A stretch of DNA of 40,403 nucleotides from Eubacteriales bacterium (lineage in GTDB: Bacteria; Bacillota; Clostridia; Oscillospirales; CAG-272): assembly GCA_051867855.1 (NCBI GenBank), contig JBJDZF010000378.1:1-40403 (forward strand), in the 5' to 3' direction. A program made the translations under genes and the position numbers. The notes beneath the pieces were generated by a model. That model was not told where the DNA came from and searched no databases. It saw only the letters and a list, made by a program, of their open reading frames with translations. The first letter of the stretch is position 1. Every line of letters starts with the position of its first letter. Below, piece after piece: positions 9,675-27,158 of the stretch.

Positions 9675-9815
9675 TAAAAATAAGTCCGCTACTCGCAAGT
9701 TTTATGACATGCTTACTTATATATAATATACCTTTTATCTCTGGAAGCTGATGCGCCAAAGGAGGAGCCGATGCGCCGAGTATCTGACATCCGGGGCCGT
9801 CGCACTATCGCGCCG

Positions 9816-9888
9816 CATCTTCCGGATTCTTCCGGCTTCTTCCGGCATCTTCCGGCATCTTCAGGCATCTTCCGGCAGGCATCTTCCG
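9816..9888. repeat. Phased 10-bp tandem repeat, CATCTTCCGG x6 contiguous plus 1 after a 3-bp gap
   Basis: catcttccgg attcttccgg cttcttccgg catcttccgg catcttcagg catcttccgg cag gcatcttccg. The unit is not a multiple of 3. Intergenic, upstream of terS. Confidence 0.9.
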
Positions 9889-10220: not shown

Positions 10221-10226
10221 TTTATT

Positions 10227-10255
10227 ATTATATCACATCTTCCGACGTTTGTCAA
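10227..10255 (-). promoter_or_regulatory. Perfect sigma-A consensus promoter firing leftward toward terS
   Basis: Minus strand reads TTGACA (10250-10255), 17-nt spacer, TGaTATAAT (10227-10235). Convergent with P1. Confidence 0.8.
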
Positions 10256-10276
10256 TAAAAGAAAGGATTAAAAATC

Positions 10277-10642
10277 ATGACAAACGCGCAAATCATCTTT
10301 AATGCATCAGTCGATCTGATGGAAAAAGGCATCCTATCCGGAACCGGACGTTTCCTTGATGTCAATTATGAAGACGGAACTGTCGGGAAAATCGAAATTC
10401 CGGAAGATATCCACACTTTTGCAGGATGGAAATCGCTTGGATACTGCGTGAAGAAAGGACAAAAGGCAATCGCGCAGATTGAAATCTGGAAGCACACGAC
10501 AAAGTTTCTTGATGAAAATGTTCAGGACGAAAACACAGCCGCTGCAAACCGGGAAATCAACGAACAGGGCGGAATCCAGAAAATGTTTATGAAAAAAGCA
10601 TTTTTCTTTAAGTCTTCGCAGGTTGAACCGTTGAAAGGTTGA
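10277..10642 (+). CDS. ArdC-N-like (DUF1738-type) ssDNA-binding domain protein; first early gene
   Basis: 121 aa, AAAGGA SD. HTFAGWKSLGYCVKKGQKAIAQIEIWK resembles the TF.QW..LG..V.KGEKG motif of the ArdC N-terminal domain. No metalloprotease half. CDS confidence is high, function moderate. Confidence 0.55.
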   Translation: MTNAQIIFNASVDLMEKGILSGTGRFLDVNYEDGTVGKIEIPEDIHTFAGWKSLGYCVKKGQKAIAQIEIWKHTTKFLDENVQDENTAAANREINEQGGIQKMFMKKAFFFKSSQVEPLKG

Positions 10643-10653
10643 GGTGATCACGA

Positions 10654-10830
10654 ATGACACAAAAGGTTGATCAGGCTTTCGAAAATCTCTATTACGGATC
10701 AGATGACGACGCAGATAAACGAATCATTTGTGAAGCGTTTGGACTTTTACAAGAGTTCTTGAAATGCAATCCTGAAGACGAGAATCACATCTTAAATCTC
10801 GCTGTAGGACGATACTTCGGAATTTATTAA
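10654..10830 (+). CDS. Hypothetical 58-aa protein (below the ORF-track cutoff)
   Basis: GAGGTGA SD at 10641-10647. Own translation MTQKVDQAFENLYYGSDDDADKRIICEAFGLLQEFLKCNPEDENHILNLAVGRYFGIY, stop TAA 10828-10830. Confidence 0.55.
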   Translation: MTQKVDQAFENLYYGSDDDADKRIICEAFGLLQEFLKCNPEDENHILNLAVGRYFGIY

Positions 10831-10878
10831 ATCAAATAAAACAGTGTCCGATAACAAGTCCGGAGAAAGGAAATTATC

Positions 10879-11154
10879 ATGGAAACAATTAAAGTGAAAA
10901 TCGATGGAAAAGTTTATGAGCTTATCAAATGCACAGGGTATTACCCTTCCATCTGCGAAGACGAATCCTGCAGACGCGATCTGTATTATTTGGCGGAAAA
11001 ACTCGATAACGGAGAAGTTTACGAAGCTTTGTTGTCGGACAATTTCGAAGACGGTGAAGAATATGAATGGGAATTACTCAATGAGCCTTCCACTTACTGT
11101 GATGATATTGCAACCATTGAAGTCGACGGTAAAATCGGCGGACAGTACAATTAA
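10879..11154 (+). CDS. Hypothetical acidic 91-aa protein
   Basis: ORF track. GAAAGGAAA SD, packed within the operon. Confidence 0.6.
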   Translation: METIKVKIDGKVYELIKCTGYYPSICEDESCRRDLYYLAEKLDNGEVYEALLSDNFEDGEEYEWELLNEPSTYCDDIATIEVDGKIGGQYN

Positions 11155-11178
11155 GTAATGCTCAACAGGTAGTAAGCC

Positions 11179-12264
11179 ATGATCAGAGTGTGCAAACGAT
11201 GCGGAAAGAAATTTGATCCTGCATCGAGTGATACCTACTACTGCGACGAGTGCAGACTTGAAATCAAGCGCGAAAGCGTATTAAAAATCGCAAAATGCTC
11301 CGAGTGTGGAATTGAATTTATCGGGGGAATAGCTTCTAAATATTGCCCTGATTGTCGATGCAATAAAGCGAATGAGGCCAGCGCAAAATCAAAGAAAAAT
11401 AAAAATAGGCGCAAAATCGGTAGTTTAGATTACTGTAAAAGATGCAGCGCGGAATATACCGTAAAAAGCGGCAAACAAAAATATTACTCTGAATGCGCCG
11501 AAATAGTGCTTGCAGAACATAATCGCGAAGTTAGCAAGCGTAAGTATCACGAAAACAATCTTTACGAAAAGCAGGCAGAGCAAAAGAAAGCGCTAAAGCA
11601 GGATTCGACTATTTGCCCAGCTTGCGGTAAACCGTTCACGCCGAACAGAAATAATCAGATGTACTGCTCTTCTGAATGCCGAAAGATAGGCGGGAAGAAG
11701 AACAGGCCTATCGAGAAAAGCGGGATCTATGCAAAAAAAACAGATTCCAAACGATATGCAGAGCCTAAATCGAACAACAAAACCGGTATACGCGGCGTAT
11801 ACTGGGACAACCGACTTAGCCGCTATGTGGTTAAAATAAAAATCGGAGACCAATTCAAGCGGCTCGGCTCATTCAAAAGCTTAGAAGATGCGCAGGAAGC
11901 GATAACAAAAGCGAAAGCCGACCGGCCACAAGTCCGGAGAAAGGAAATAGAAATGGAAAAAGTAATTTACACATGGTACAATTTTATGAACGGCGCAAGA
12001 GTAAGCGCATGCACGTTAAATCATAATCCAAAAAATAAGATCGATCATACCTGCGAATGCGGGCTGAAAATCACAATTTCGGTTCCTGACGGGTATCATT
12101 TAACCGAAAACGATTACGGCGACGCCATTTTGGTAAAGGATGACGAAACTAAAGGAATACTCCTGCAGTATAACAACGACTTGAATCGGATCGAAGAAGG
12201 CGGTTATACTGTTACCGGTAACCCGATTAAAGGCGTAAGAATCATTAGCAAAGAAGAATTTTGA
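11179..12264 (+). CDS. DNA-binding protein: four tandem zinc ribbons plus an AP2-type domain
   Basis: 361 aa. Four CxxC-x(11-15)-CxxC units (CKRCGKKF...YYCDEC; CSECGIEF...YCPDC; CKRCSAEY...YYSEC; CPACGKPF...MYCSSEC). Then TGIRGVYWDNRLSRYVVKIKIGDQFKRLGSFKSLEDAQEA, an AP2/HNH-associated three-strand DNA-binding motif. Confidence 0.7.
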   Translation: MIRVCKRCGKKFDPASSDTYYCDECRLEIKRESVLKIAKCSECGIEFIGGIASKYCPDCRCNKANEASAKSKKNKNRRKIGSLDYCKRCSAEYTVKSGKQKYYSECAEIVLAEHNREVSKRKYHENNLYEKQAEQKKALKQDSTICPACGKPFTPNRNNQMYCSSECRKIGGKKNRPIEKSGIYAKKTDSKRYAEPKSNNKTGIRGVYWDNRLSRYVVKIKIGDQFKRLGSFKSLEDAQEAITKAKADRPQVRRKEIEMEKVIYTWYNFMNGARVSACTLNHNPKNKIDHTCECGLKITISVPDGYHLTENDYGDAILVKDDETKGILLQYNNDLNRIEEGGYTVTGNPIKGVRIISKEEF

Positions 12265-12269
12265 TTGGG

Positions 12270-12398
12270 AAAAAGAAAGAAGGCAGCAAAGCTGCCTTCT
12301 TCTCCGATTCCTAATGAAATCGCAAATATTTCAATCCGCGCGGGAAATCAAAAGGAAATCCCATGACCGTAATCAAGGATGACACTTCATCCAGTTAC
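12270..12398 (-). ncRNA. Candidate ~125-nt intergenic RNA (ends approximate)
   Basis: Lies between the near-consensus minus promoter 12405-12433 and the hairpin 12278-12300, which has its better U-tract (UUCUUUUUCC) on the minus strand. Only SD-less micro-ORFs inside. Confidence 0.3.
12278..12300. terminator. Bidirectional hairpin terminator after the zinc-ribbon/AP2 gene
   Basis: AGAAGGCAGC-aaa-GCTGCCTTCT, 10-bp perfect stem. U-rich flanks on both strands, stronger on minus. Confidence 0.6.
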
Positions 12399-12407
12399 GA
12401 ATATATT
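12379..12407 (+). promoter_or_regulatory. Probable promoter of the 12445 HTH gene
   Basis: ATGACA (12379-12384), 17 nt, TATATT (12402-12407). Its -10 overlaps the -10 of the opposing promoter. Confidence 0.4.
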
Positions 12408-12433
12408 ATATCATACAATTTCAGGTTTATCAA
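12405..12433 (-). promoter_or_regulatory. Near-consensus leftward promoter
   Basis: Minus strand reads TTGATA (12428-12433), 17 nt, TGaTATAAT (12405-12413). Confidence 0.6.
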
Positions 12434-12444
12434 GGAGGAATCTT

Positions 12445-12672
12445 ATGTTTCCCAAAAGTCAATCCAAAACGTTCGTTTGTAGAGCTCGGTCGATCCGGAT
12501 ATCGTCCGGAATGACGCAGAAGCAGTTTTCCGATTATTTCGGTATCCCATGTCGTACTATTCAGGACTGGGAATATTCCCGTCGAAAATGCCCGGAATAC
12601 ATTCTTGACTTGATGGAATACAAGCTCTTAAACGAAGGTATCATACAGAAAGCAGAAAACAGGGACGTATAA
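12445..12672 (+). CDS. Small HTH transcriptional regulator (XRE-like)
   Basis: Real start is ATG 12445 behind an AAGGAGGA SD (the track ORF starts earlier). SGMTQKQFSDYFGIPCRTIQDWEYSRRKCPEYILDLMEYKL is a common phage/antitoxin-type HTH pattern. Confidence 0.75.
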   Translation: MFPKSQSKTFVCRARSIRISSGMTQKQFSDYFGIPCRTIQDWEYSRRKCPEYILDLMEYKLLNEGIIQKAENRDV

Positions 12673-12685
12673 CGTACCTGTTTTT
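12659..12685. terminator. Bidirectional terminator between convergent operons
   Basis: ACAGGGACGT-ata-ACGTACCTGT (9 of 10 bp). U-runs follow on both strands. Confidence 0.5.
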
Positions 12686-12689
12686 CGTT

Positions 12690-13022
12690 TCAGATCAGTC
12701 CGCGCGCCACCGCGTATAACCTTCTTGCCCGTTTCAGCATCCGCCACACGGACGATTCCGACCATCCCTTTTCATATGCATATCTCCTGACGCGTGACGC
12801 TATGATTTTCCCGTTGATTTTTTCGTTGACGCCGCTCATGTATATTGCTGTCACCGCATTTTCCTCCTCATCCGTCATAGATGATAGCGCAATTGTGACG
12901 GCTTCCTCATCGGCGCGCAGAATCTCGGATTTTTCCTGGTTTGCCTTTAATCGCGCGTATTCCCGATAGGCGGATATCGCCATATCCATATATTTTTCCC
13001 GTCTTATAATCTCCACCCCCAT
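12690..13022 (-). CDS. Small sigma-70 region-4-like / phage transcription regulator
   Basis: 110 aa. C-terminal EKGWSESSVWRMLKRARRLYAVARGL resembles a region-4 HTH. Last gene of the early operon. Confidence 0.4.
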   Translation of the reverse strand: MGVEIIRREKYMDMAISAYREYARLKANQEKSEILRADEEAVTIALSSMTDEEENAVTAIYMSGVNEKINGKIIASRVRRYAYEKGWSESSVWRMLKRARRLYAVARGLI

Positions 13023-13481
13023 TCAGAACGGAAGCTGATCGTCTTCTCCGAGTGCCTCAAATGCAGCTGCGCTGTAGTCTGGTGCCCTCTCAACCTCCGG
13101 CTGCGTCCGGTTCGGCTGTGTGTTTTCCGTTTTATGTTCTTCGTCCGCTTCGCTTTTCTTGGATGCGGCGAATCCTACCTCGTCCGCTACTATTTCCGTA
13201 AAGCTCCGTTTTTTCCCTTGCAGATCATCATAGGTTCTCGTCTGCAGCTGACCCACAATCAGGATCGGATCGCCTTTATGGAAAAATCTGCAAACAAATT
13301 CCGCCGTCTGACGCCAACAGACAATCAGAGGAAAATCCGTGACGCTCTTTCCGTCCTCCCCCTTGTACCGTCTGGAAACGCCGATTGAAAAGCTGCATAC
13401 CGATACGCCGGATGCTGTCTGCTTCAGCTCCGGATCCCGGCATATATTCCCCATCAGGATCACTTTGTTTAATGATGGCAT
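13023..13481 (-). CDS. ssb: Single-stranded DNA-binding protein
   Basis: 152 aa. OB-fold N-terminus NKVILMGNICRDPELKQTASGVSVCSFSIGV...WRQTAEF...KGDPILIVGQLQTRTY, disordered tail ending in the acidic tip DDQLPF. AAAGGGGGA SD. Confidence 0.9.
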   Translation of the reverse strand: MPSLNKVILMGNICRDPELKQTASGVSVCSFSIGVSRRYKGEDGKSVTDFPLIVCWRQTAEFVCRFFHKGDPILIVGQLQTRTYDDLQGKKRSFTEIVADEVGFAASKKSEADEEHKTENTQPNRTQPEVERAPDYSAAAFEALGEDDQLPF

Positions 13482-13510
13482 AATATCCCCCTTTGTTTTT
13501 CATGATTTCG

Positions 13511-14377
13511 TTATCCCTGTTCCGGCAAAAGCTCGTCCCACGGGTATTGATCGCCGTATGTCCCGGATTGATATGTAACGGTCGTTGACCACGGCGCAAC
13601 GGCGGCATTGCTTTTCAGCAGCCGCATATGCATGTAGTAACTGTGATCGTATGGATTATAGACGCAGCTCCACCCGTCACACAGCTTGTACCCCGGAAAA
13701 AGGTTCTGCATTTCCTGCCGCGTCAAATTGTTTTCGTAAAAATCCCGGCAGTTTTTTTTCGTGAAAACGCGTGAAAGTGCGCGTGCCTGTCTGTCATCCT
13801 CCGGCAGAGGCTCAGGCCGTTCCAGATTCTGCGAAGTCACAAACGTCTTTTCATACGCTTCACGCTCCTCTTTTTTCGCATAATAACATGCAAGATCGGT
13901 ATACCCGTTCTCCGTGTACTCAAGATAGGCCGCATAGTTCCGTTTCGAATTTTTCCATGCGCGGATCAGTGCTTCCTTTTCTACGCCGCCGGAAACGATC
14001 ATATGATGATGCACGCGCCCGGATTCCTCTCCTCGTTCGGTGCAGTAAATGTATTTGAGTTCCTTCCCCGCCTTCTGATACAGGCGTTTGATTCTCCGTA
14101 TGTAGTTCGTCATTTGTCTTTTCGCGTCCTGCATATCATCCGGATAATTCCCGTTTTCATAATCCAGCTCGAGCATAACGGATCGGCTGTCAAAGTTAAG
14201 ATTTACAAGCCGTGTGACATACCGCTTGCGCCTCATGATATTTACTTTTTCCTGATTTTCACGTGTAACACCCCAAACAATCCGCTTCCCGCGTCTGGTT
14301 TTCCGGTGCGCGTATACATCGATCTCAACCATACCCGGCATATCATATACAATTGCTTTTTCTCTCTCCTGCGTCAT
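13511..14377 (-). CDS. HUH-superfamily rolling-circle replication initiator-like protein
   Basis: 288 aa. Motif II GRVHHHMIVSG (HHH at 14003-14011), motif III LACYYAKK (u-x-x-Y-u-x-K), motif I-like SVMLELDY. Adjacent to ssb. Confidence 0.6.
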   Translation of the reverse strand: MTQEREKAIVYDMPGMVEIDVYAHRKTRRGKRIVWGVTRENQEKVNIMRRKRYVTRLVNLNFDSRSVMLELDYENGNYPDDMQDAKRQMTNYIRRIKRLYQKAGKELKYIYCTERGEESGRVHHHMIVSGGVEKEALIRAWKNSKRNYAAYLEYTENGYTDLACYYAKKEEREAYEKTFVTSQNLERPEPLPEDDRQARALSRVFTKKNCRDFYENNLTRQEMQNLFPGYKLCDGWSCVYNPYDHSYYMHMRLLKSNAAVAPWSTTVTYQSGTYGDQYPWDELLPEQG

Positions 14378-14441
14378 TTTGATATGCCCGTTTCCTTTCT
14401 TCGTTAAAATGGTTGAGATGTTAATATATCATACAAGTTCC

Positions 14442-14469
14442 CGTGGGGCATCTCACCCCACGTTTTTTT
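14442..14469 (+). other. GC hairpin plus T7 immediately upstream of the HUH rep gene (plus-oriented terminator or candidate nick-site hairpin)
   Basis: CGTGGGG-catctca-CCCCACG followed by TTTTTTT on the plus strand, although both flanking genes are on the minus strand. Confidence 0.5.
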
Positions 14470-14479
14470 CTTCTATATA

Positions 14480-15022
14480 TTATATAGCTTTGTAACGATA
14501 GACCTTGTTAGTGTATCCAGGTATCGTTTCCGCCGTCCTGCATCCGTATTGATACAGACGATTCTGCATAACCTCGTTCACGACCCCGACATCGTCCTGA
14601 AAAACCCTGTTATAATATCGGATTCTCTCGTTCAGACCGTCTTGAAAACGATCCAGACGTTTCTGCCCGAATTTTTCCTGCTTGCGAAGGACATACAGCC
14701 ATGCTCCGTATACGAGATCATGTTCGTCCCCGATCTCAACTTTTTCGCCGTGTCCCTTCCTCAGCTGCAGATCGATCTGACATTCCGCCGAAAGAATATC
14801 CTTTAATCGGTTCAGTGCTTCCCGGCTGCCGCGTCCTGAAGAAGTGACGGAATCGATCAGACGGTTCACGCTGTTCTGAATCCGTTCAATTCGCTCTCCG
14901 CTTCCTCCCATTTCGAATTCTTCTATCAGTGTGATCTTCGCGCAGTTATTAATCATAACGCGAATCGCTTCTCTTGCAATTTGTCTGATGTGCTTTTCCC
15001 GTTCCGGTATCCTTGCTTTCAT
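14480..15022 (-). CDS. Hypothetical protein (180 aa)
   Basis: ORF track. ATGA overlap with the upstream gene. Confidence 0.6.
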   Translation of the reverse strand: MKARIPEREKHIRQIAREAIRVMINNCAKITLIEEFEMGGSGERIERIQNSVNRLIDSVTSSGRGSREALNRLKDILSAECQIDLQLRKGHGEKVEIGDEHDLVYGAWLYVLRKQEKFGQKRLDRFQDGLNERIRYYNRVFQDDVGVVNEVMQNRLYQYGCRTAETIPGYTNKVYRYKAI

Positions 15023-15210
15023 TCCTTTTCCTCCTCATTAAGCCAATCTGCAAACCGTTTTCTGTCCGGATAATATGTTTCGCTGTTTTTTTTGCAAAAA
15101 ACAGCATACATTGGACACATTTCGCACGTTTTCGAATTATCGCAAATCCAATTGATATAGTATTCAATTTCTGCCGAAGACATCTGCCTTATTTTTTCAA
15201 TATTTGTCAT
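15019..15210 (-). CDS. Small Cys-containing phage protein (63 aa)
   Basis: AAGGAGA SD. MTNIEKIRQMS..EIEYYINWIC....C..C.......C pattern is common in Clostridia phage early regions. Confidence 0.6.
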   Translation of the reverse strand: MTNIEKIRQMSSAEIEYYINWICDNSKTCEMCPMYAVFCKKNSETYYPDRKRFADWLNEEEKE

Positions 15211-15274
15211 TACTCTTCTCCTTTACTTCTACATCGAAATAAGAAATATCCATCTCAACAATTTTCGCGGCTTT

Positions 15275-15406
15275 TCATCTCGGATTTGCTAATGTTTGTT
15301 TATAAACGTAGTATGCGTCTTCATAAGATGATGTCCATGTATAGCACACATTCCATTCATCGTTATCATAAGTTTTTCCAAACACACCATATTCGATTTC
15401 ATCCAT
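15275..15406 (-). CDS. Hypothetical 43-aa protein (below the track cutoff)
   Basis: Own translation MDEIEYGVFGKTYDNDEWNVCYTWTSSYEDAYYVYKQTLANPR. The start overlaps the upstream stop by 8 nt. Confidence 0.4.
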   Translation of the reverse strand: MDEIEYGVFGKTYDNDEWNVCYTWTSSYEDAYYVYKQTLANPR

Positions 15407-17451: not shown

Positions 17452-18153
17452 TCATATAATTTCTTTAAGCTTTTTAATCGTGCTTCCACCATAATCGTTT
17501 TCAGTAAGAGCAATAAATTCTTCAACAGTAAAACAGTCTTCCATTTCTATTCCATGATTCTTCATAAAATTATTTCTCCCCATCTCGCAGGATCCGGTGA
17601 GATAGTGATGCCATTCGTAAAATTCAGAACACGGATATTTCCGACCTTTCTTAAATTTTTCGCAGAATCTCTCTATAGCTTCGTCTTCATCCATATTTTC
17701 CATGATCTTTTCGCGAAGCGCTTCTGCCGCTTTTTCGGCGGTTTCTCCATGCGCGAAAAATCCATCACCTTTCGCGACGTAGCAAGGTACAAGTGTAAAA
17801 TCAGATTGCAATATGTACCCTTTTGCGAGATTCCCATGAATGGATCTGATTACAGTTTGAATATGGTCTATGACCAAAACATAATATCCGTTAAAAAACG
17901 ATATTCCGTAGGAGGATCTTGATCCGCCGCCGTAGCCTCCGCCGGATTCGTTTCCGCCGGATTCGTTTCCGACGCCGTAGCCTCCGCCGGATTCGTTTCC
18001 GCCGCCGTAGCCTCCGCCGGATTCGTTTCCGCCGCCGTAGCCTCCGCCGGATTCGTTTCCGCCGCCGTAGCCGTAGCCGGCGCCGTAGCCGTAGCCGGAG
18101 CCGGAGCCGGAGCAATTATCCGCAATCCATTCAAGGATTTTTACTTTTTCCAT
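17452..18153 (-). CDS. Gly/Tyr-rich repeat protein with a globular C-terminal domain
   Basis: 233 aa. N-terminal SGSGSGYGYGAGYGYGGGNESGGGYGGGNES... repeats, then FNGYYVLVIDHIQT...AKGYIL..DFTLVPCYVAKGDGFFAHGET. Confidence 0.7.
   Translation of the reverse strand: MEKVKILEWIADNCSGSGSGYGYGAGYGYGGGNESGGGYGGGNESGGGYGGGNESGGGYGVGNESGGNESGGGYGGGSRSSYGISFFNGYYVLVIDHIQTVIRSIHGNLAKGYILQSDFTLVPCYVAKGDGFFAHGETAEKAAEALREKIMENMDEDEAIERFCEKFKKGRKYPCSEFYEWHHYLTGSCEMGRNNFMKNHGIEMEDCFTVEEFIALTENDYGGSTIKKLKEII
17926..18110. repeat. 30-bp tandem coding repeat (plus degenerate GTAGCC/GGAGCC tail)
   Basis: gccgccgtagcctccgccggattcgtttcc at 17926-17955, a 15-bp half unit, then units at 17971-18000, 18001-18030 and 18031-18060 (the last two identical). 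Confidence 0.9.
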
Positions 18154-20382: not shown

Positions 20383-20604
20383 TCAGAGGAACACCTTACG
20401 CGGATTTTCAACGTCCAGAAGATCGCAGATTCCGAATACCTCATGCAGCTTGAACGGATAATACCCGTGCATCTTCAGCGAAAGGGTTGACCGCGGAATG
20501 CCCAGATGTTCCGCCGCTTCCGTGAAGCTGATCTTCTTTTTCTTCATCAGTGTCTCGACAATGCACTGATCCGGATAATTCGGTTTCTTATACGTGTTTT
20601 TCAT
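20383..20604 (-). CDS. Cro-like small HTH regulator
   Basis: Start at ATG 20604 (AAGAGG SD). KKISFTEAAEHLGIPRSTLSLKMHG helix-turn-helix. Second gene of the leftward early operon. Confidence 0.7.
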   Translation of the reverse strand: MKNTYKKPNYPDQCIVETLMKKKKISFTEAAEHLGIPRSTLSLKMHGYYPFKLHEVFGICDLLDVENPRKVFL

Positions 20605-20631
20605 GCCCATACCTCTTTTAATTAAGTTTTT

Positions 20632-20784
20632 CCGCGCCCGCGCGGAGACGGCGACAGTTTCCGGTTCCATGCGCGGCATGTCGTCCGCTCCGGACTTATC
20701 GCCCTCTCTCCGAGGATTCCGCTATGGGAAACCTTTGAAAGGATATCGAGGCGTCTTGTTTTCACCGCCTCCGCGCGGGCACGG
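20632..20784. repeat. 22-bp GC-rich inverted repeat pair flanking a ~110-bp leader segment
   Basis: ccgcgcccgcgcggagacggcg (20632-20653) versus the reverse complement of 20763-20784 (ccgtgcccgcgcggaggcggtg): 19 of 22 identical. Both contain the 10-mer TCCGCGCGGG, also present at 12335-12344. Confidence 0.7.
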
Positions 20785-20791
20785 ATTCGTT

Positions 20792-20956
20792 TCAGTTTTT
20801 CGAATCGGAATCCGCTTCCGTCTTTTTCAACTTTCCTCCGTCAAGCAGACCGTTTCCGTAAGTCAGAAGCAGAATCCGCTGTACATCAGTCATTTGCATA
20901 ACAGATGTAATGATGCTTGTAATGATTTCTGTTTCGCTTTTTTCAAGTACTTTCAT
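20792..20956 (-). CDS. Hypothetical 54-aa protein, first ORF of the leftward early operon (below the track cutoff)
   Basis: Own translation MKVLEKSETEIITSIITSVMQMTDVQRILLLTYGNGLLDGGKLKKTEADSDSKN. GGCGGTGA SD. Confidence 0.45.
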   Translation of the reverse strand: MKVLEKSETEIITSIITSVMQMTDVQRILLLTYGNGLLDGGKLKKTEADSDSKN

Positions 20957-21002
20957 TGTTTCACCGCCTTTTTATTTTTCGTTATAATCATTCATAATTT
21001 TG

Positions 21003-21031
21003 TTGACACACTGTTTTTTGCGTGCTATAAT
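21003..21031 (+). promoter_or_regulatory. Perfect consensus promoter P2
   Basis: TTGACA (21003-21008), 17 nt, TGcTATAAT (21023-21031). Confidence 0.85.
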
Positions 21032-21049
21032 AAATTATGGGTGATAATT

Positions 21050-21493
21050 ATGAAAACCAAAATTTTTGTTTGCATTTTGATTTTTGTTGGAATTTGTACA
21101 TTTGCTGTTATTGCGCCAAACTATAAAGATGTACAGAATACTGGTGCTGTTGTTTCTGTTGATTCAAAACCGATTGCAATAAATCATGAAACCGAAGAAA
21201 ATCATGATTCCGAATTGCAGTTGGTTTCTATTACAGATCCGATATCTCCCGGAAAAGTTGCTGCTTTGATATTAAAAGGGAAACCGAATACGGATTATTA
21301 CCTTGTTGTGATCTATCAAAAAGAATCAAAGGCAAGTGGTCTCGGATTGGCCACATCAGATAGCACCGGTATGGTTAAATGGTATTGGAAGGTTGGAACA
21401 AGAACATATACAGGTGAAAAAGATATAAAGGTTTACTATGGTAATAGCAAAAAAGGAAAACCAATTTTCGAAATGAAATTCACTGTAAAATGA
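21050..21493 (+). CDS. Secreted or membrane-anchored small protein (147 aa), moron-like
   Basis: The real start is the internal Met at 21050, downstream of P2. The 299-aa track ORF spans the promoter. MKTKIFVCILIFVGICTFAVIAP signal/anchor, beta-rich C-terminal domain. AT-rich. Confidence 0.7.
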   Translation: MKTKIFVCILIFVGICTFAVIAPNYKDVQNTGAVVSVDSKPIAINHETEENHDSELQLVSITDPISPGKVAALILKGKPNTDYYLVVIYQKESKASGLGLATSDSTGMVKWYWKVGTRTYTGEKDIKVYYGNSKKGKPIFEMKFTVK

Positions 21494-21551
21494 TTTCAAG
21501 TTTAGTTTTGCAAGCACATTTTACGAATTTCTTATGTACTTGTTCGTACTA

Positions 21552-21580
21552 ATTATATCACATTAATTGTACTATGTCAA
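21552..21580 (-). promoter_or_regulatory. Perfect consensus leftward promoter, back-to-back with the repressor promoter
   Basis: Minus strand reads TTGACA (21575-21580), 17 nt, TGaTATAAT (21552-21560). Confidence 0.8.
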
Positions 21581-21625
21581 CCACTTTTATAAATTTATTT
21601 TTTATTTTTTGTACTCACAATTCCA

Positions 21626-21654
21626 TTGACAGCCGAAGATTTTTATGATATAAT
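21626..21654 (+). promoter_or_regulatory. Perfect consensus promoter P3 of the XRE repressor gene
   Basis: TTGACA (21626-21631), 17 nt, TGaTATAAT (21646-21654). Confidence 0.85.
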
Positions 21655-21680
21655 ATGTTTTGAAGTAAGGAGGTGGTTAT

Positions 21681-22076
21681 ATGGGCATCGAAGAAAGGAT
21701 CAAGAAAGTTCGTAAAGATAACGGATTGAATCAAACTGAATTCGGGAAGTCTCTCGGGGTAAGCAGAAATGTCATCAAAACATACGAGCTTTCTCTTGTC
21801 AAGCCGTCTGAAATTTTCATCGATCATCTTTGCGTTGTATACGGTATAAATCCGGAATGGCTCGAAACCGGACAAGGAAGCATGCACGCCGATATATCGC
21901 GCGAAGAACAGATTGCGCGATTCGTAGGAGAAGCGATGAAGGAGGAAGGATCGTTCAAACATGCATTGATAACCCTTTTATCCGAGCTGGATGAAGACGG
22001 ATGGAAGAAGCTGGACGAGGCCGCACATGCTCTGCTCGATGCGCAGGAGCAGATCAGGAAAAGCAGCGATCCTTAA
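21681..22076 (+). CDS. XRE-family (CI-like) repressor, no peptidase domain
   Basis: 131 aa. IKKVRKDNGLNQTEFGKSLGVSRNVIKTYE...GINPEWLETGQG is a canonical HTH_3 with the WL.TG tail. AAGGAGG SD. Confidence 0.85.
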   Translation: MGIEERIKKVRKDNGLNQTEFGKSLGVSRNVIKTYELSLVKPSEIFIDHLCVVYGINPEWLETGQGSMHADISREEQIARFVGEAMKEEGSFKHALITLLSELDEDGWKKLDEAAHALLDAQEQIRKSSDP

Positions 22077-22089
22077 TTCTTCCGAAGGC

Positions 22090-22134
22090 AAAAAAAAAGA
22101 AACGATGGAATAAAAACCATCGTTTCTTTTTTTG
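22090..22134. terminator. Strong bidirectional terminator
   Basis: 12-bp perfect stem AAGAAACGATGG/CCATCGTTTCTT (22097-22108 / 22117-22128), with an A-run before and a T-run after. Confidence 0.8.
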
Positions 22135-22142
22135 TCATTTCT

Positions 22143-22274
22143 CTATTGCCATGCTTTCAGAATCGTATGAATCCGAACAATCTCTGTATAGCTTGATCTT
22201 CGGATCATGTCCATGATTTCAATCAGCATCTGCAATCGTTTCATTTCTTCCCCCTCATTCTTTTTTCCGCCCAT
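22143..22274 (-). CDS. 43-aa peptide with its own perfect promoter (below the track cutoff)
   Basis: AGGAGGA SD 7 nt before ATG 22274. Own translation MGGKKNEGEEMKRLQMLIEIMDMIRRSSYTEIVRIHTILKAWQ, stop TAG 22143-22145. Confidence 0.6.
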   Translation of the reverse strand: MGGKKNEGEEMKRLQMLIEIMDMIRRSSYTEIVRIHTILKAWQ

Positions 22275-22319
22275 CTGTTTTTCCTCCTATGTTTAAGAAC
22301 GTTTGTTCTTTTTTCTAAT

Positions 22320-22348
22320 ATTATACCATAGGAAAACGGTTTTGTCAA
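22320..22348 (-). promoter_or_regulatory. Perfect consensus promoter P4
   Basis: Minus strand reads TTGACA (22343-22348), 17 nt, TGgTATAAT (22320-22328). The -35 overlaps the stop of the upstream ORF. Confidence 0.85.
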
Positions 22349-22809
22349 CGCATATTTTGCTTTAAGTTTCTGATTCTGTTTTCAAGCTCCTGATTTTCTT
22401 CTTCAAGTACAGCGATTTCGATTTCTTTTTCTTTGCATCTTTTCTTCAGTTCGAATATGTATGTACTGACGATTTTTGCGTTTTCAATGCCGCTGCTTTG
22501 GATTTCAAGGTCGATGCTGCAGTGATCTTCCTGAAGCTTCTTGATTTCGTTTTCCTTCATGATTTCCCTGACACGGTCATGTACGGAATTTATCGTCCGA
22601 TTCATTTCTATTCCGTGTCTTTCGATCATGGATTTCTTTTCCTTTTCGTGCTCTTTTGCTTCTCTGATTTTCTCAAAATATAAATCTTCGTTTTCCTTTT
22701 TCAGTTTCAGCACCTCTTCTCTTTTATCGAAATAAAGCACGAAGAAAACGACAGCTGTTATAATGAGTATAATGATTACCGAATACATGAATCCAACCAA
22801 CTCTGACAT
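22345..22809 (-). CDS. N-terminally anchored coiled-coil membrane protein (154 aa)
   Basis: Start at ATG 22809 (AAAGGAG SD). TM helix FMYSVIIILIITAVVFFVLYF, then a Lys/Glu-rich heptad-like sequence. Very AT-rich. Confidence 0.7.
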   Translation of the reverse strand: MSELVGFMYSVIIILIITAVVFFVLYFDKREEVLKLKKENEDLYFEKIREAKEHEKEKKSMIERHGIEMNRTINSVHDRVREIMKENEIKKLQEDHCSIDLEIQSSGIENAKIVSTYIFELKKRCKEKEIEIAVLEEENQELENRIRNLKQNMR

Positions 22810-22830
22810 GATATCACTCCTTTCACTACT

Positions 22831-22859
22831 ATTATACATCATTTTTTATTGTTTTTCAA
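22831..22859 (-). promoter_or_regulatory. Near-consensus promoter
   Basis: Minus strand reads TTGAAA (22854-22859), 17 nt, TATAAT (22831-22836). Confidence 0.7.
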
Positions 22860-22867
22860 TTATTCTG

Positions 22868-22896
22868 TTGATTTTTGTTCCGGATTATGATATAAT
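22868..22896 (+). promoter_or_regulatory. Near-consensus promoter, back-to-back with 22831-22859
   Basis: TTGATT (22868-22873), 17 nt, TGaTATAAT (22888-22896). Confidence 0.75.
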
Positions 22897-22920
22897 TCAA
22901 TATAAAAGAGGTGTATTGAA

Positions 22921-23430
22921 ATGATTGAAGAAATGGATTTTTCCGATTTTGTTATTACGATCTGTTATGCTTGTCAGGTAGCCTCATTGATCTGTATCTA
23001 TAGATACTACGATTACAGAGAAATCAATGAATATTATCATATGAAAGCAAGAAATAAGGTAACGCACAGCTTCTTGAAAAACCTTTTTGCGATTTATTTC
23101 ATCCAACACCTGATAGGATTTATATTATATTTCATTGCTTATTGGTATATTTTCACCGATTTCATTATCATGATACCGCTTGGCTTAATGTGCTTTACAA
23201 TTTCCGTATTGCTTCGCTTGATGAACAAAAAAAAGAATTTCGGTTTTGGATTATCTCTCATTTTATTTTTTATCTTATTTTTGCCTATGTCATATCTCTC
23301 GCTTCGGTATTGCGATAAGTTCACGGATTATTGTACAGAATCCTTTTATTCATGTTTTTGTTTATATATTTTACCAATGTATGGGGTTTTATTTATCGAT
23401 TATAATACATATCTTGATAAAACCGAATAA
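22921..23430 (+). CDS. Polytopic membrane protein (about 5 TM helices, 169 aa)
   Basis: AAGAGGTG SD. Aromatic/Cys-rich hydrophobic segments. Very AT-rich. No recognisable family. Confidence 0.75.
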   Translation: MIEEMDFSDFVITICYACQVASLICIYRYYDYREINEYYHMKARNKVTHSFLKNLFAIYFIQHLIGFILYFIAYWYIFTDFIIMIPLGLMCFTISVLLRLMNKKKNFGFGLSLILFFILFLPMSYLSLRYCDKFTDYCTESFYSCFCLYILPMYGVLFIDYNTYLDKTE

Positions 23431-23612
23431 ACCCTTATTATAATTCATTTATATATTATCATATTTCCAGGAATTTTTCAATAACCAATTAAGACGGAAA
23501 CGGAACCGCTTATTATTTTTCCGATACCATCCGTTCCGAAAAGTCGGAAACGGTCGAAGTCTGTAAGACGATTTCCTGTTTCCGTGTCTTATTTCTATAC
23601 AGTATTTATAAT

Positions 23613-23645
23613 GAAAAAGAGACAGTTTCCGGTCTCTTTTTTTAT
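23613..23645. terminator. Bidirectional terminator
   Basis: AAAGAGAC-agtttccg-GTCTCTTT (23616-23623 / 23632-23639) with A5 before and T-run after. Confidence 0.7.
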
Positions 23646-24310
23646 TTTCCGAAGATCCACATCTTCCGTTTCTTTTTTTCCGGCTCCTTGGTTTCCGCGG
23701 CTTCTATCCGCATGATATCGTTTGCGTGTAAGGCCTGTGCGCCCTTCGTGCTGTCCATTGCATCTGACAGCGCCTGCGTCAGGTTTGCATTCTGTGATAG
23801 CAATGATTTGATCTGCTCGTCTTTTTCCTCAATCTGCCGTTTCAGAAACGCGCACGTTCCGCGAAGCTCTTCCTCCGAAACCGACAGGATCCGTATTGTT
23901 TCGGTTGCAGCCGAAAGTTTCAGCTTCATCGCTTCGGTTTCACGCTCCATTTCCGCCATGAAACCTGAAATTCCTCGGTTTCCGCTGACAACTTTTTCAC
24001 CTTCGGTTTCACCTGTTTTTTCTTCTTCTGACAACCCGGAAAAAGTTTCCCCCGTTCCGGTTTCAGAATTGGCCCCGTCATATCCGGTTTTTTCGGTTTC
24101 ATCTATGGTTTCAGTGGAAACCGGTTTCACCTCTTTTTTTCTCTTTTTTTCATCGTTTTCCGAAACCAATATTTTCTCCGCTTCTTCTGTCAGGTAGATG
24201 GTCTTATCCTCCGCCGTGAAAAAGGTTTCACGCGGAAGTTTCAGCACGCGCTTATAAAGCGCCTGTCTGGATATCCCCATTTCACCCGCAAGCTGCCGTA
24301 TCGTTTTCAT
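23642..24310 (-). CDS. HTH protein translationally coupled to rep (plasmid replication-associated, DUF536-like arrangement)
   Basis: 222 aa. MKTIRQLAGEMGISRQALYKRVLKLP HTH, acidic Thr/Glu-rich linker, C-terminal coiled coil. ATGA overlap with rep. Confidence 0.55.
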   Translation of the reverse strand: MKTIRQLAGEMGISRQALYKRVLKLPRETFFTAEDKTIYLTEEAEKILVSENDEKKRKKEVKPVSTETIDETEKTGYDGANSETGTGETFSGLSEEEKTGETEGEKVVSGNRGISGFMAEMERETEAMKLKLSAATETIRILSVSEEELRGTCAFLKRQIEEKDEQIKSLLSQNANLTQALSDAMDSTKGAQALHANDIMRIEAAETKEPEKKKRKMWIFGK

Positions 24311-25368
24311 CTTTTCCCGCCTCCGCTCCCGTCAGATGCAAGCATCTTGCAGAAATACCTGTACCGGCTTGTATGTACATCCCTCGTCTGCATCTCATCG
24401 TATTTCCGCTTGAGATAATGATATCGGCATATGTCCGGATCGTCAAACCGTGTTCCGACCGTATCGTCAGGAACTGCTTTCACAAGGTCATAGAGATACC
24501 GCATTTCGCTTTCATCAAACTCTCTGTCGCAGGCGTCCGCTAAAAACTCAAGCGTTTCGTCCTCGTAGGTATGCGCGACCTCCTCGAATTCCGTGATATC
24601 GACGCATCCGTCCCCGTCCGTTTTCTGCATATCCATATACGCACGCAGAGACAGCGGATCGGAAAATGCATCGTTTTTCATGATCCGGAATACGACCGCC
24701 GTGACGCGTCCTCCGCGCCCGTGCTTTTCAAGCGTATAGGTATACCTGATATCCGTGTTTTCCGCAAGCGCCGTCTGGCATGCGTCCAATACGCACGCTT
24801 TGAACCGGTCGAATCGGTCATAGGTTCCCGGCTCGATTCCGAGCAGAGACCGTATTTCCGGCAGCGTGAAGCGCCGCTCACCAAGTTTTTCATACTGCTT
24901 CAGAATTTCATACATGCGCAGCTGGTTTTTCGATTCAAGCCGGAGTGCGTTCCACAGCTCGTAGCGGAAATATTCTCGTTTGAACCGGAACAGAAGCGGC
25001 ATAGCGTCCTCATGCGCGCGGAATGTGATATACCAGCCGTCCGGCCGATGCTCGCACCGGCAGCGGTCGAACAGATGGAACTGCTCATACCCGCCGTCGC
25101 TTGTATCAACCGTTATAAGGCGTGAGACAAGCCTTGCGGTTGTTTCCTTAAGCTGTGCTAAATTGATCTTTTTCAGCTCCATAATGCGCTGAAAATCGGC
25201 AAGCGCGAATTCCTGCGACCGCGTTTCCTCATCCATGATATTGATTTTTGACAGGTAAATCGAGAAGAAGCGAAGCTCCTGCAGCGTCATCTTCGTTTCT
25301 CTGACTTCGTTCAGCACATTTCGCTTGGTCACAATCGCGTGTTCGCGTATTGTTTTCATAAAGCCCAT
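24307..25368 (-). CDS. rep: Rep_3-family (RepB-type) iteron-binding theta replication initiator
   Basis: IVTKRNVLNEVRETKMTLQELRFFSIYLSKI, YELWNALRLESKNQLRMYEILKQY, FTLPEIRSLLGI..YDRFDRFKACVLDACQTALAENTDIRYTY and GRGGRVTAVVFRI follow the Rep_3 pattern. Start is ATG 25368 or 25359, because the track start 25395 lies inside the promoter. Confidence 0.8.
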   Translation of the reverse strand: MGFMKTIREHAIVTKRNVLNEVRETKMTLQELRFFSIYLSKINIMDEETRSQEFALADFQRIMELKKINLAQLKETTARLVSRLITVDTSDGGYEQFHLFDRCRCEHRPDGWYITFRAHEDAMPLLFRFKREYFRYELWNALRLESKNQLRMYEILKQYEKLGERRFTLPEIRSLLGIEPGTYDRFDRFKACVLDACQTALAENTDIRYTYTLEKHGRGGRVTAVVFRIMKNDAFSDPLSLRAYMDMQKTDGDGCVDITEFEEVAHTYEDETLEFLADACDREFDESEMRYLYDLVKAVPDDTVGTRFDDPDICRYHYLKRKYDEMQTRDVHTSRYRYFCKMLASDGSGGGKR

Positions 25369-25383
25369 CACCTCACCTCTCTG

Positions 25384-25412
25384 ATTATACCACATTTCAA
25401 CACCTTTGTCAA
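25384..25412 (-). promoter_or_regulatory. Perfect consensus rep promoter
   Basis: Minus strand reads TTGACA (25407-25412), 17 nt, TGgTATAAT (25384-25392). Lies between the iterons and rep. Confidence 0.85.
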
Positions 25413-25471
25413 CCTTTTGGTGTGATGTTCCGTTTTCCCCTGATGAAATGCATTTTTATCAGAAATATTGA

Positions 25472-25677
25472 GGTGGGAAGTTCGGAATATTGTGGTGGGA
25501 AGTTCGGAATATTGTGGTGGGAAGTTCGGTTCGTTCTGTGGAAATCCTGTTGAAATCGTGTTTATTATCTGTGGAAGAAAATATTTCGAAGTGGGAAGTT
25601 CGGAATCTCGTGGTGGGAAGTTCGGAATATCGAAGTGTGAAGTTCGGAACATCGTGGTGGGAAGTTCGTTTTTCTAT
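25472..25677. repeat. Seven 22-bp iterons in two clusters (3 + 4)
   Basis: GGTGGGAAGTTCGGAATATTGT-type units starting at 25472, 25494, 25516 and at 25590, 25612, 25634, 25656, with exact 22-bp phasing within each cluster. The spacer holds two DnaA-box-like 9-mers (TGTGGAAAT 25537-25545; TGTGGAAGA 25570-25578; 7 of 9 to TGTGGATAA). Confidence 0.9.
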
Positions 25678-25740
25678 CCATTTATTATATTAAAAGAATA
25701 TAAAATATATATAAAAAGATAGATAGATAGATTATATGGA
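25668..25740. other. AT-rich stretch next to the iterons (candidate DNA unwinding element)
   Basis: tttctatccatttattatattaaaagaatataaaatatatataaaaagatagatagatagattatatgg. Confidence 0.5.
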
Positions 25741-26464: not shown

Positions 26465-27106
26465 TCAGTTATTTCCGCAGCAGTTGCCGCAGTTTCTGAT
26501 CGGATTATAGAGCGTCTGCGCGCTTGTGGTCGTACCGGTCGTAACGTCCGCAACCATCTTGGGATAAAACGTTGCGTTGACGTAATTGACGATGGTGTTG
26601 TCGCCGCAGCATCTCTCGTCGCGTTCCCGGTTGATTGCCTGATAGAGCTCGTTCTTGCAGCATATCATGTCGTTTCGAACCATATCGAAGGAATCGGACG
26701 TTTTCTGATTCATGACTGCCTGTTCGCCGAGCGTACCGCGGATATCCTTCAGCTCGCCGTCGATATACTTGTATACTTCGACAAGTTTCTGGTCGCCGTA
26801 GATATTGGCTCGGAGAAGCGCGATTTCGGAATCCTTTGCCGCATTGGACTGCTGAAGACCAAGCTCGTACCGATTCACGACATGGTTTTCGGAACATCCG
26901 CAATCACCGCTTCTTACGGCGCCCGCCATAGCTGCGATTGCCGCGGAAGCTGCCGCCGCTGTTGCCGCTCCGTTGTTCGCGTTTCCTCCGAGAATATTAC
27001 CCAGCCCGCCGTTTGTGAGCGCTCTCAGAACCTCAATGCCGACTGCTGTCGATCCGAGTGCGATTCCTGCGTTGCCCTTTGCATTTGCACCTTCTACTGT
27101 TGCCAT
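26465..27106 (-). CDS. Gly/Ala-rich, Cys-cluster protein (213 aa)
   Basis: Start at ATG 27106 (GGAGG SD 9 nt upstream). Gly/Ala/Asn-rich N-terminal third, coiled middle, Cys clusters GDCGCSEN, MICCKN, RCCGDN and C-terminal RNCGNCCGNN. Confidence 0.65.
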   Translation of the reverse strand: MATVEGANAKGNAGIALGSTAVGIEVLRALTNGGLGNILGGNANNGAATAAAASAAIAAMAGAVRSGDCGCSENHVVNRYELGLQQSNAAKDSEIALLRANIYGDQKLVEVYKYIDGELKDIRGTLGEQAVMNQKTSDSFDMVRNDMICCKNELYQAINRERDERCCGDNTIVNYVNATFYPKMVADVTTGTTTSAQTLYNPIRNCGNCCGNN

Positions 27107-27158
27107 AGTTTTTAACCTCCGTATCACTTGTTTGTGCGCACTTCTTACCGGTATTAAG

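Follow-up and report, generated by a model that had tools for sequence, protein, structure and literature searches.

A candidate rolling-circle origin beside the HUH initiator gene of a tailed phage that also carries a Rep_3 replicon

The contig JBJDZF010000378.1 of an Eubacteriales bacterium (assembly GCA_051867855.1), whose whole length of 40,403 nucleotides (nt) is called the window here, is a tailed-phage genome encoding a gp3-type TerS, TerL, a P22-like portal, a capsid protein, a lysin with GH25 and SLH domains and a giant protein of 2452 amino acids (aa). No helicase, primase or polymerase was found among its profile-scanned open reading frames (ORFs), and double-stranded DNA (dsDNA) viruses without a helicase often carry rolling-circle replication (RCR) endonucleases (PMC4889955). 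The initial annotation of this DNA had described a 288-aa ORF with three HUH-type motifs directly upstream of ssb, an adjoining hairpin and T7 run that oppose both flanking genes, and, besides this rolling-circle initiator, a theta-type one of the Rep_3/iteron kind; all of these features are in place (Table 1). The gap between rep and ssb measures 29 nt, the SSB tip is of the canonical acidic form, the hairpin with its T7 is the best terminator-like site in 12300-15300, and the theta-type initiator has both Rep3_N and Rep3_C domains and seven 22-bp iterons. The 288-aa Rep is probably the vegetative initiator of this phage, with a composite origin situated just upstream of its own gene.

Table 1. 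Features of the two replicons and of the putative lysogeny switch in the window
Feature	Position (nt)	Strand	Evidence and remarks
HUH Rep gene (288 aa)	13511-14377	-	PF23343, PHROG 3584, invariant motifs, AlphaFold2 (AF2) model, Foldseek
ssb	13023-13481	-	PF00436 E=4e-29, phrog_44; acidic C-terminal tip EDDQLPF
Candidate double-strand origin (dso) core GGAACTTGTATGATATATTAACATCTCAACCA	14441-14410	-	CTTG 14437-14434; TATTAAC 14426-14420; AACCA 14414-14410
GC-rich hairpin, 7-8 bp stem	14442-14462		CGTGGGG-catctca-CCCCACG on + strand; ends 4-5 nt 5' of CTTG on rep strand
T7 on + strand (A7 on rep strand)	14463-14469		AT-rich flank continues to ~14488
Rep_3-family initiator gene	24307-25395	-	Rep3_N E=1e-19, Rep3_C E=1e-7
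Rep_3 origin	25464-25716		22-bp iterons, 3 (25464-25529) + 4 (25591-25668); AT-rich stretch 25686-25716
cI-like HTH_3 repressor gene	21681-22076	+	PF01381 E=2e-7; 36% identity to L034 repressor, equivalent position
Cro-like helix-turn-helix (HTH) ORF	20383-20679	-	

The product of the 288-aa ORF is almost certainly an HUH rolling-circle Rep. Its residues 78-168 match the Pfam family PF23343 (REP_ORF2-G2P) with 43.4 bits against a gathering threshold (GA) of 27.8, while residues 16-256 match PHROG 3584, “replication initiation protein”, at E=6e-50, accompanied by a weaker match to the PHROG “rolling circle DNA replication initiation”. The three motifs are SVMLELDY at residues 66-73 (motif I, which ends in Y73), RVHHHMIV at residues 121-128 and LACYYAK at residues 162-168. 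In an alignment of 26 sequences reaching down to 25% identity, Y73, R121, H123, H124, H125 and Y165 are invariant, and the motifs are therefore not chance look-alikes. Y165 is the first tyrosine of YYAK and stands in a YuxK context (Y165-Y-A-K168); since Y165 is invariant and Y166 varies, the enzyme is of the one-tyrosine kind. The position four residues before the catalytic tyrosine is occupied by D or G and is not conserved, and the glutamate of the pC194 type is thus not kept.

The AF2 model, built with the family alignment (pLDDT 81.7, pTM 0.79), has an HUH-type fold. Among viral models (BFVD), Foldseek matched it to the “Replication associated protein” of uncultured siphoviruses (E=2e-17) and then to VP4/Rep of Microviridae. 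The top matches in the PDB are nearly all HUH nucleases, although weak (E 0.008-0.1, probability up to 0.99), and include the Reps of adeno-associated virus (AAV), circovirus, geminivirus, nanovirus and parvovirus as well as SIRV1 ORF119; searching the PDB chains by sequence, with the profile of the family, returned only noise from the ribosomal protein eS8. The possibility that the protein is a relaxase, a transposase or an inactive relic deserves next to no credence. HUH nucleases do include relaxases and IS91/IS200-type transposases, and NCBIfam has no model for this Rep, but replication initiators account for every match by profile, PHROG and fold, the catalytic residues are invariant, the gene occupies an early-operon position beside SSB in many phages, and no transposon ends or type IV secretion system (T4SS) context were seen. 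The Rep family is very large, with 9025 clusters at 50% identity at E<=1e-3, 3213 at E<=1e-10 and 1001 at E<=1e-30.

All close homologues of the Rep (53-95% identity) are metagenomic. Distant homologues with 23-34% identity, annotated as “replication initiation protein”, are present in cultured phages of Clostridium, Enterocloster, Terrisporobacter, Latilactobacillus and Butyrivibrio, and also in microviruses. At least ten loci share the order of early operon, Rep, SSB (sometimes absent), an ORF of ~105 aa, a gap and then terS-terL-portal, with SSB following Rep in the loci L001, L002, L003, L009, L010 and L034. Rep, with or without SSB, ends the early operon across three structural modules, which are P22-type, SPP1-type and HK97-type with HNH/Terminase_4. 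In PhiS63, which has an integrase and repressors, the Rep homologue is the sole annotated initiator. Searches of IMG/VR with protein patterns (a single protein; close alignment) found no relatives, and megablast of 20 kb of the window against phages gave no match. A scan of IMG/VR with a 17-base DNA pattern returned ten loci, of which only L018 is real, the other nine being chance matches that include L016 on the contig of a levivirus-like RNA phage; the metagenome scan contributed only five short loci and the genome scan one.

Two observations concern the ends of the protein. The window Rep and the homologue P0001 (288 aa) are without the acidic C-terminal tail of ~20-25 aa (..YYSAYERA..EE) that is common to most homologues of 53-73% identity, a difference located at ~13511-13540 of the window. 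The gene call of the homologue P0004 (339 aa; L028, L029, L034 and L037) starts too far upstream, its N-terminal “MKKKCGANAPQRLVWCINFSTVYF” being the translated hairpin and origin element; this annotated extension is an artefact.

Upstream of rep, and on the rep strand 4-5 nt beyond the 3' end of the hairpin, begins a conserved element of ~30 nt with the consensus G-a-a-g-C-T-T-G-T-A-T-G-n-t-g-T-A-T-T-A-A-C-A-a-n-T-C-g-A-C-c-A-T. Sixteen loci, with Reps of 22-95% identity, can be aligned over these 30 nt without any gap, and 11 positions are the same in all of them (C, T, G, A...T.TTA.C...AC). The copy in the window, GGAACTTGTATGATATATTAACATCTCAACCA, is unique there even when three mismatches are allowed. 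With a relaxed pattern of ~20 bits, and among loci that have upstream DNA fitting the test pattern, exactly one copy per locus was found in 27 of 27 rep-bearing loci, without exception on the rep strand and at 0-370 nt before rep. The rest of the ~0.4 Mb of fetched sequence contains no element except for one chance match in the levivirus-like RNA-phage contig. The element lies at variable distances (~45-370 nt) from the start of rep, with an intervening ORF in L018.

The element is also present in the cultured phages. It reads CTTGTACTAGATATTAACTTAACGACCA in phiSM101, CTTGTATGCTGTATTATCTTTACGACG in Latilactobacillus TMW 1.46 P2, CTTGTAATAGATATTAAC in TPDSL_ph2, CTTGTATGGGGTATTAAC in Saumur and CTTGTAATAGGTATTATC..GAACCA in PhiS63. 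The element of Arawn, CTTGATAAAAGTATTAAC, has an exact CTTGATA core and is not matched by the relaxed pattern. In L038 and L042, which are phiSM101-like, a second, partial copy (ACTAGATATTAAC) is found within the inverted repeat GGCGTTAATAGTTACTAGATATTAACGCC, ~100 nt upstream of the origin element; in this lineage it is a possible accessory site of Rep binding or of termination.

The hairpin next to the element is conserved in structure. DNA folding of a 96-nt stretch containing it gave z=-3.1 against dinucleotide shuffles, and the 48 nt immediately upstream of CTTG gave z=-6.0 against mononucleotide shuffles. A stable hairpin of 7-10 bp is present in 16 of 18 folded loci, where it ends 4-5 nt before CTTG (once 3 and once 7); two loci in this set duplicate others, and the L028 entry is mis-anchored, as L028 has the hairpin and element of L034. 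The 13 distinct well-formed hairpins have z-scores of -3.1 to -6.5, that of L018 is a weak one at z=-1.3, and in PhiS63 no more than a weak, AT-rich stem is found at this position. At least seven unrelated stem sequences occur among the relatives at the fixed offset, so that the structure is kept and the sequence is not; examples are CGTGGGG/CCCCACG, GTTGGGC/GCCCAAC, GGAGCGGC/GCCGCTCC, ACGCGTGCGC/GCGTGCGCGT, AATTCGCGCG/CGCGCGAATT and GCGGG/CCCGC. In the near-identical pair L004 and L009, a G>T change in the stem is compensated by C>A. Across ~20 relatives, which include cultured phages of Clostridium, Latilactobacillus, Butyrivibrio and Terrisporobacter, pairing in the stem persists through compensatory exchange of the entire sequence, and the loop shows no conservation. 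An AT-rich flank, usually with a terminal A-run, lies upstream of the hairpin in the relatives, and the A-run directly precedes the hairpin on the rep strand in ~10 of 14 distinct relatives. Judging from these comparisons, the hairpin is a real structure under selection next to rep.

The stem-loop beside rep, a usual form of a rolling-circle double-strand origin, had been put forward in the initial annotation as a possible nick site. The conserved hairpin bears out the structural half of this proposal, while a nick within the hairpin is not borne out, since the loops vary and the adjacent 30-mer is invariant. Many HUH origins display the nick site in a hairpin loop (PMC5703833). The origins of pT181, pMV158 and the circular Rep-encoding single-stranded DNA (CRESS) viruses are of this kind, and a structurally conserved hairpin immediately upstream of rep would suit such an arrangement. 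Nicking in the loop of CGTGGGG/CCCCACG is nevertheless very improbable: stems and loops differ completely among the relatives (the loops include TGAGATG, TGAAAT, GAAA, TGAAAGAT, TTCGGT, GAAT, CGCA and TTTTCGT), so that sequence-specific HUH cleavage would have no conserved target there, and the invariant sequence is found 4-5 nt away. By analogy with known origins, the hairpin may instead be a positioning or extrusion element 5' of the nick and not the substrate.

The dso of RCR plasmids is usually found upstream of rep, where it may overlap the promoter of this gene, and is made up of a Rep-binding site and a short palindrome (PMC5703833). In the locus described here, a conserved sequence that is unique, linked to rep and specific to one strand lies next to a palindrome, and the composite of flank, hairpin and 30-mer is likely to be the origin used by the Rep. 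The dso of pC194-type Reps is nicked at a conserved CTTGATA (PMC10378824). In phiX174 (NC_001422) the origin reads CAACTTG^ATATTAATAACACTATAGACCAC, with the annotated origin and nick at 4306, and is followed by the GC hairpin CCCCGAAGGGG and an A-run; the window element shares with it, in the same order over ~30 nt, AACTTG, ATATTAA/TAAC and (G/A)ACCA. By this analogy the nick is tentatively predicted at CTTG^TA, between 14434 and 14433 of the minus strand. In global alignments to the phiX174 30-mer, shuffled sequences scored equally or better in 24 of 2000 cases for the window and in 9 of 2000 for L002, and the likeness is to be taken as a lead and not as proof.

The second initiator belongs to a separate unit. 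Rep_3 lies outside the early operon; between it and that operon, whose last genes are those of the HUH Rep and SSB, stand the cI-like and Cro-like ORFs. The window thus holds two replicons, one made of Rep_3 with its seven iterons and AT-rich stretch and the other of the HUH Rep downstream of the Cro-like/cI-like switch. In tblastn searches, relatives of Rep_3 were found in 1499 plasmid records vs 5 phage records; they are named as plasmid replication proteins in gut Clostridia, mostly of small plasmids. A lookup of the exact Rep_3 sequence found nothing on record, and no plasmid matched the 20.4-27.3 kb part of the window in blastn. Neither an integrase nor a recombinase domain was detected in the Pfam-scanned ORFs of at least 180 aa, a set that left out 26465-27127(-), the 2452-aa ORF and the ORFs cut by the contig ends. 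On this basis, the Rep_3/iteron replicon would most likely keep the prophage as a plasmid. A 222-aa ORF at 23642-24310(-), which overlaps the Rep_3 stop codon, has weak coiled-coil-type matches and internal DNA repeats (TTCGGTTTCACC..), and is probably co-transcribed with Rep_3.

The same layout is found in contigs of ~44 kb, which share the order of giant ORF, Rep_3, repressor, early operon with phosphoadenosine phosphosulfate (PAPS) reductase, HUH Rep and SSB. In this lineage Rep_3 is 51% identical to that of the window and the HUH Rep ~70% identical (68% by tblastn for L034, 73% by BLASTP for P0004). Since the synteny is kept even though Rep_3 has diverged to 51%, the pairing is a lineage trait and not a recent accident. 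A second, independent example is provided by circular, phiSM101-like 38-kb “plasmids” of C. perfringens. In these, genes for a lysin, ParM/StbA, a “plasmid replication protein” and repressors precede an early operon in which an HUH Rep (55.5 bits on PF23343) and the origin element known from the window are again found together; no integrase appears among the 53 of 56 annotated features shown. The pairing of a plasmid replicon, present instead of an integrase, with a presumably lytic HUH module is thus documented in two unrelated phage backbones.

The initial annotation had suggested a division of labour between the theta and the rolling-circle initiator. A split in which Rep_3 serves maintenance and the HUH Rep lytic amplification is indeed rather probable, and it is backed by the conserved synteny and by the phiSM101-like elements; the split itself is an inference, and the principle of two replicons is not new, as phage P1 has a prophage replicon, oriR, and a lytic replicon, oriL (PMC9948254). 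Alternatively, the HUH Rep alone would perform both maintenance and lytic amplification, with Rep_3 being recent cargo or a hitch-hiking small plasmid, or both initiators would work jointly in the lytic cycle. The mostly small gut Clostridia plasmids among the relatives of Rep_3, the foreign low GC content (36-41%) of the 20.4-24 kb region beside it and the lack of any partition genes found in the window speak for this alternative, which is nonetheless improbable, given that the position of Rep_3 is kept at 51% identity, arguing for a long-term function, that its iterons are intact and that an analogous pairing exists in the phiSM101-like elements.

From these features we infer a scheme for where and how nicking takes place, what the hairpin does, which host factors take part and which replicon serves which phase of the life cycle. 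On the minus strand the origin would consist, in this order, of the AT-rich flank with A7, the GC hairpin (14462-14442), 4-5 nt and GGAACTTG^TATGATATATTAACATCTCAACCA (14441-14410). Rep would bind this element on the supercoiled circular genome, where the hairpin, either extruded or on the displaced strand, would position the enzyme, and Y165 would cleave the minus strand, most likely after CTTG (14434/14433). The 3'-OH would then be extended by a host polymerase together with a host helicase of the PcrA/UvrD type, while SSB, whose tail has the canonical form for interaction with host proteins, would cover the displaced strand. Lagging-strand synthesis would lead to concatemers, which the P22-type TerS/TerL would package. 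Leading-strand synthesis would in this way be co-directional with almost all transcription.

Several observations weigh against this scheme or parts of it. The Rep gave no match at E<=0.1 to the profiles Rep_1 (pC194/pUB110) and Phage_GPA (phiX174/P2), and is not a member of these families, although it may work like them. The nick position rests on the analogy with phiX174 and pC194, and the likeness to the phiX174 30-mer is only marginally significant for the window and not significant for the variants of L005 and L018. In L018 the Rep shares only 22% identity, yet the element hardly differs from the one in the main clade; a conserved nick core would explain this, and so would recognition by something other than Rep. 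GC skew is negative, tracks gene orientation and marks neither origin. Since no partition (Par) proteins were found in the window, the plasmid lifestyle is a putative one, and the loci L002, L005 and L008 end too early upstream for Rep_3 to be scored. The hairpin with its T-run has the form of a good intrinsic terminator on the + strand, with a T-rich tail in most relatives, and part of the conservation of the element could be due to a promoter or operator function.

The last two points lead to a transcriptional explanation, according to which the hairpin and T7 form a + strand terminator, serving to insulate the early operon from antisense transcription or as the end of a countertranscript that controls rep, as proposed for pC194/pUB110, the 30-mer is a promoter, operator or 5'-untranslated region (5'-UTR) element of rep, and the origin is at another place, such as within rep, where phiX174, P2 and pT181 have theirs. 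Stem and T7 match the intrinsic-terminator form, the A-run on the rep strand is found in most relatives, and the + strand genes of the window at 11179-12672 point towards rep; countertranscripts have been predicted for Rep_1 plasmids (PMC5703833). An extended -10-like box, TGnTATATT (also written TGATATATT), lies within the element in the window, L001, L010, L022 and L018, and resembles the phage's own TGATATAAT promoters. However, no + strand gene ends at the hairpin, relatives without + strand genes keep it, and 13 loci searched over 420 nt showed no conserved antisense promoter of the sigma-70 kind. The invariant CTTG, TATTAAC and GAC do not follow the logic of -35 and -10 boxes, the critical A2 of the -10 is G in many relatives, no consistently placed sense -35/-10 pair was found, the distance between the element and rep is variable as described above, and Rfam has no match in 13400-15100. 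A purely transcriptional role is therefore unlikely. RepU binds its own dso and silences the adjacent promoter (PMC5703833), which makes the two readings compatible, and use of the element as both origin and operator is possible. The composite origin remains the preferred interpretation.

Other parts of the window surround these two replicons. The giant 2452-aa ORF at 27793-35151(-) is located immediately upstream of the small genes that precede Rep_3; its counterpart in the ~44-kb lineage has 2490 aa (L034 1-6489) and no Pfam hit on record there, and a function in the virion or in injection is presumed. The stretch 20400-24300, which separates the early operon from Rep_3, has a GC content of 36-41% vs ~48-52% elsewhere. 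Inside it, an orphan 299-aa + strand ORF (20594-21493) has one homologue among 5.8 billion proteins; considered as a ParM-like partition ATPase, it was rejected, having no family hits and no similarity to ParM of the phiSM101 type. In the early operon, a 233-aa ORF without family hit (17452-18153(-)) contains a 30-bp repeat in four copies and GC-rich tandem repeats of 18 bp and 6 bp (17953-18113).

Downstream of Rep and SSB, just before the packaging genes, lies a 110-aa ORF without family hit (12690-13022(-)), which may be a late-gene regulator. Most relatives have an ORF there too, 100-126 aa long, and the one in L010 has 163 aa. The synteny of Rep, SSB and the 110-aa ORF with terS, known from the relatives, is broken by a + strand gene island at 10277-12672 with positive GC skew. 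Members of this island are a 361-aa multi-zinc-ribbon protein (11179-12264) with an AP2-like domain and matches to HNH-endonuclease PHROGs, and a 97-aa HTH protein. The - strand carries at 12433-12405 a near-perfect promoter of the extended -10 kind, TTGATA-17-TGATATAAT (11/12), followed by ~110 nt without an ORF of at least 40 aa and then by a strong hairpin with a T-run, GAAGGCAGC-ttt-GCTGCCTTC TTTCTTTTT, at ~12300-12272; the region 12272-12433 of the - strand could be a small RNA unit facing the promoter of the + strand HTH gene. The 12-nt identity TTGTATGATATA between the origin core and the - strand promoter at ~12415 was considered as a sign of a second origin and judged to be due to chance or related to the promoter. 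Upstream of terS, at 9815-9888 and 10224-10258 (in - strand sense), 6-7 tandem copies of CGGAAGATGC are found. About 350 nt farther upstream is a near-consensus promoter, TTGACA-N17-TGATATAAT, whose spacer, bounded by the -35 and the extended -10, contains the motif once more as CGGAAGATG. The repeats may be operator or activator sites for control of the late or packaging genes.

A wider proposal follows from the comparison of the loci, and its chances are close to even but somewhat below. The hairpin with, after 4-5 nt, CTTG(T/A)A-N5-TATTAAC-N5-GACC would be the shared dso of a very large family of single-tyrosine HUH Reps in Bacillota tailed phages (thousands of clusters at 50% identity), homologous to the phiX174/pC194 origin. 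Its combination with an interchangeable plasmid replicon, Rep_3 in the window and ParM with another Rep in the phiSM101-like elements, that takes the place of an integrase in the lysogeny module would be a recurrent, modular route to phage-plasmids in gut Clostridia. If this is true, Microviridae, RCR plasmids, temperate siphoviruses and podoviruses would share one replication lineage with a common nick core. The loci compared here yield a candidate origin at base resolution for a Rep family that is common in gut and food Bacillota phages and has so far been annotated only as “replication initiation protein”. Its cultured carriers (phiSM101, PhiS63, Saumur, Arawn, TPDSL_ph2 and Latilactobacillus TMW 1.46 P2) make the prediction testable without the metagenomic phage, and rep with ~90 bp would offer minimal parts for inducible amplification vectors in these hosts.

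The system is similar to phiX174 A and to Rep_1 of pC194 in using an HUH nuclease with a YuxK tyrosine motif, and the ~30 nt of the candidate origin contain, in rep-sense orientation, CTTG(T/A)A followed by an AT-rich run, TAAC and ..GACCA. As in phiX174, a GC hairpin and an A-run abut the 30-mer, and as in pC194-type plasmids the dso is upstream of rep. Unlike the enzymes of phiX174 and P2, which have two tyrosines, the window Rep has one invariant tyrosine, and unlike that of pC194 it has no conserved Glu four residues before it. The spacing between CTTG and TAAC is 3 nt longer than in phiX174, the hairpin is 5' and not 3' of the 30-mer, and the origin is intergenic and not within a gene. 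The genome, too, differs from those of phiX174 and pC194, being that of a 40-kb tailed dsDNA phage.

The nearest likeness in profile, early-operon position and upstream element is to the PF23343/PHROG 3584 Reps of cultured phages, such as PhiS63 gp31, phiSM101 CPR_C0031, Arawn gp43 and those of Saumur and Latilactobacillus TMW, although their identity to the window Rep is only 23-34%. VP4 of Microviridae is similar in profile family and fold. The searchable literature apparently contains no mapped origin for the Reps of these cultured phages, and searches of it for the phiX174 origin string, for PF23343 and for HUH with Rep_3 in phage-plasmids found nothing directly relevant.

In phage P2, the origin is located inside gene A. 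The window phage belongs to a different Pfam family in its initiator, and P2 integrates and is without a plasmid replicon; like P2 with its gene A, the window phage is a tailed temperate phage that has an HUH initiator in place of a replisome based on a helicase or a primase (PMC4889955).

The lytic initiator of P1 is RepL and not an HUH nickase, the plasmid initiator of the window is Rep_3 where P1 has RepA at oriR, and, unlike in P1, no par system was found. In other respects the layout corresponds to that of P1: one phage genome carries two replicons, an iteron-type replicon, in the window presumably for the prophage, and a second one placed within the immunity-controlled lytic programme, and the two-replicon principle of P1 would thereby extend to the phage-plasmids of Clostridia.

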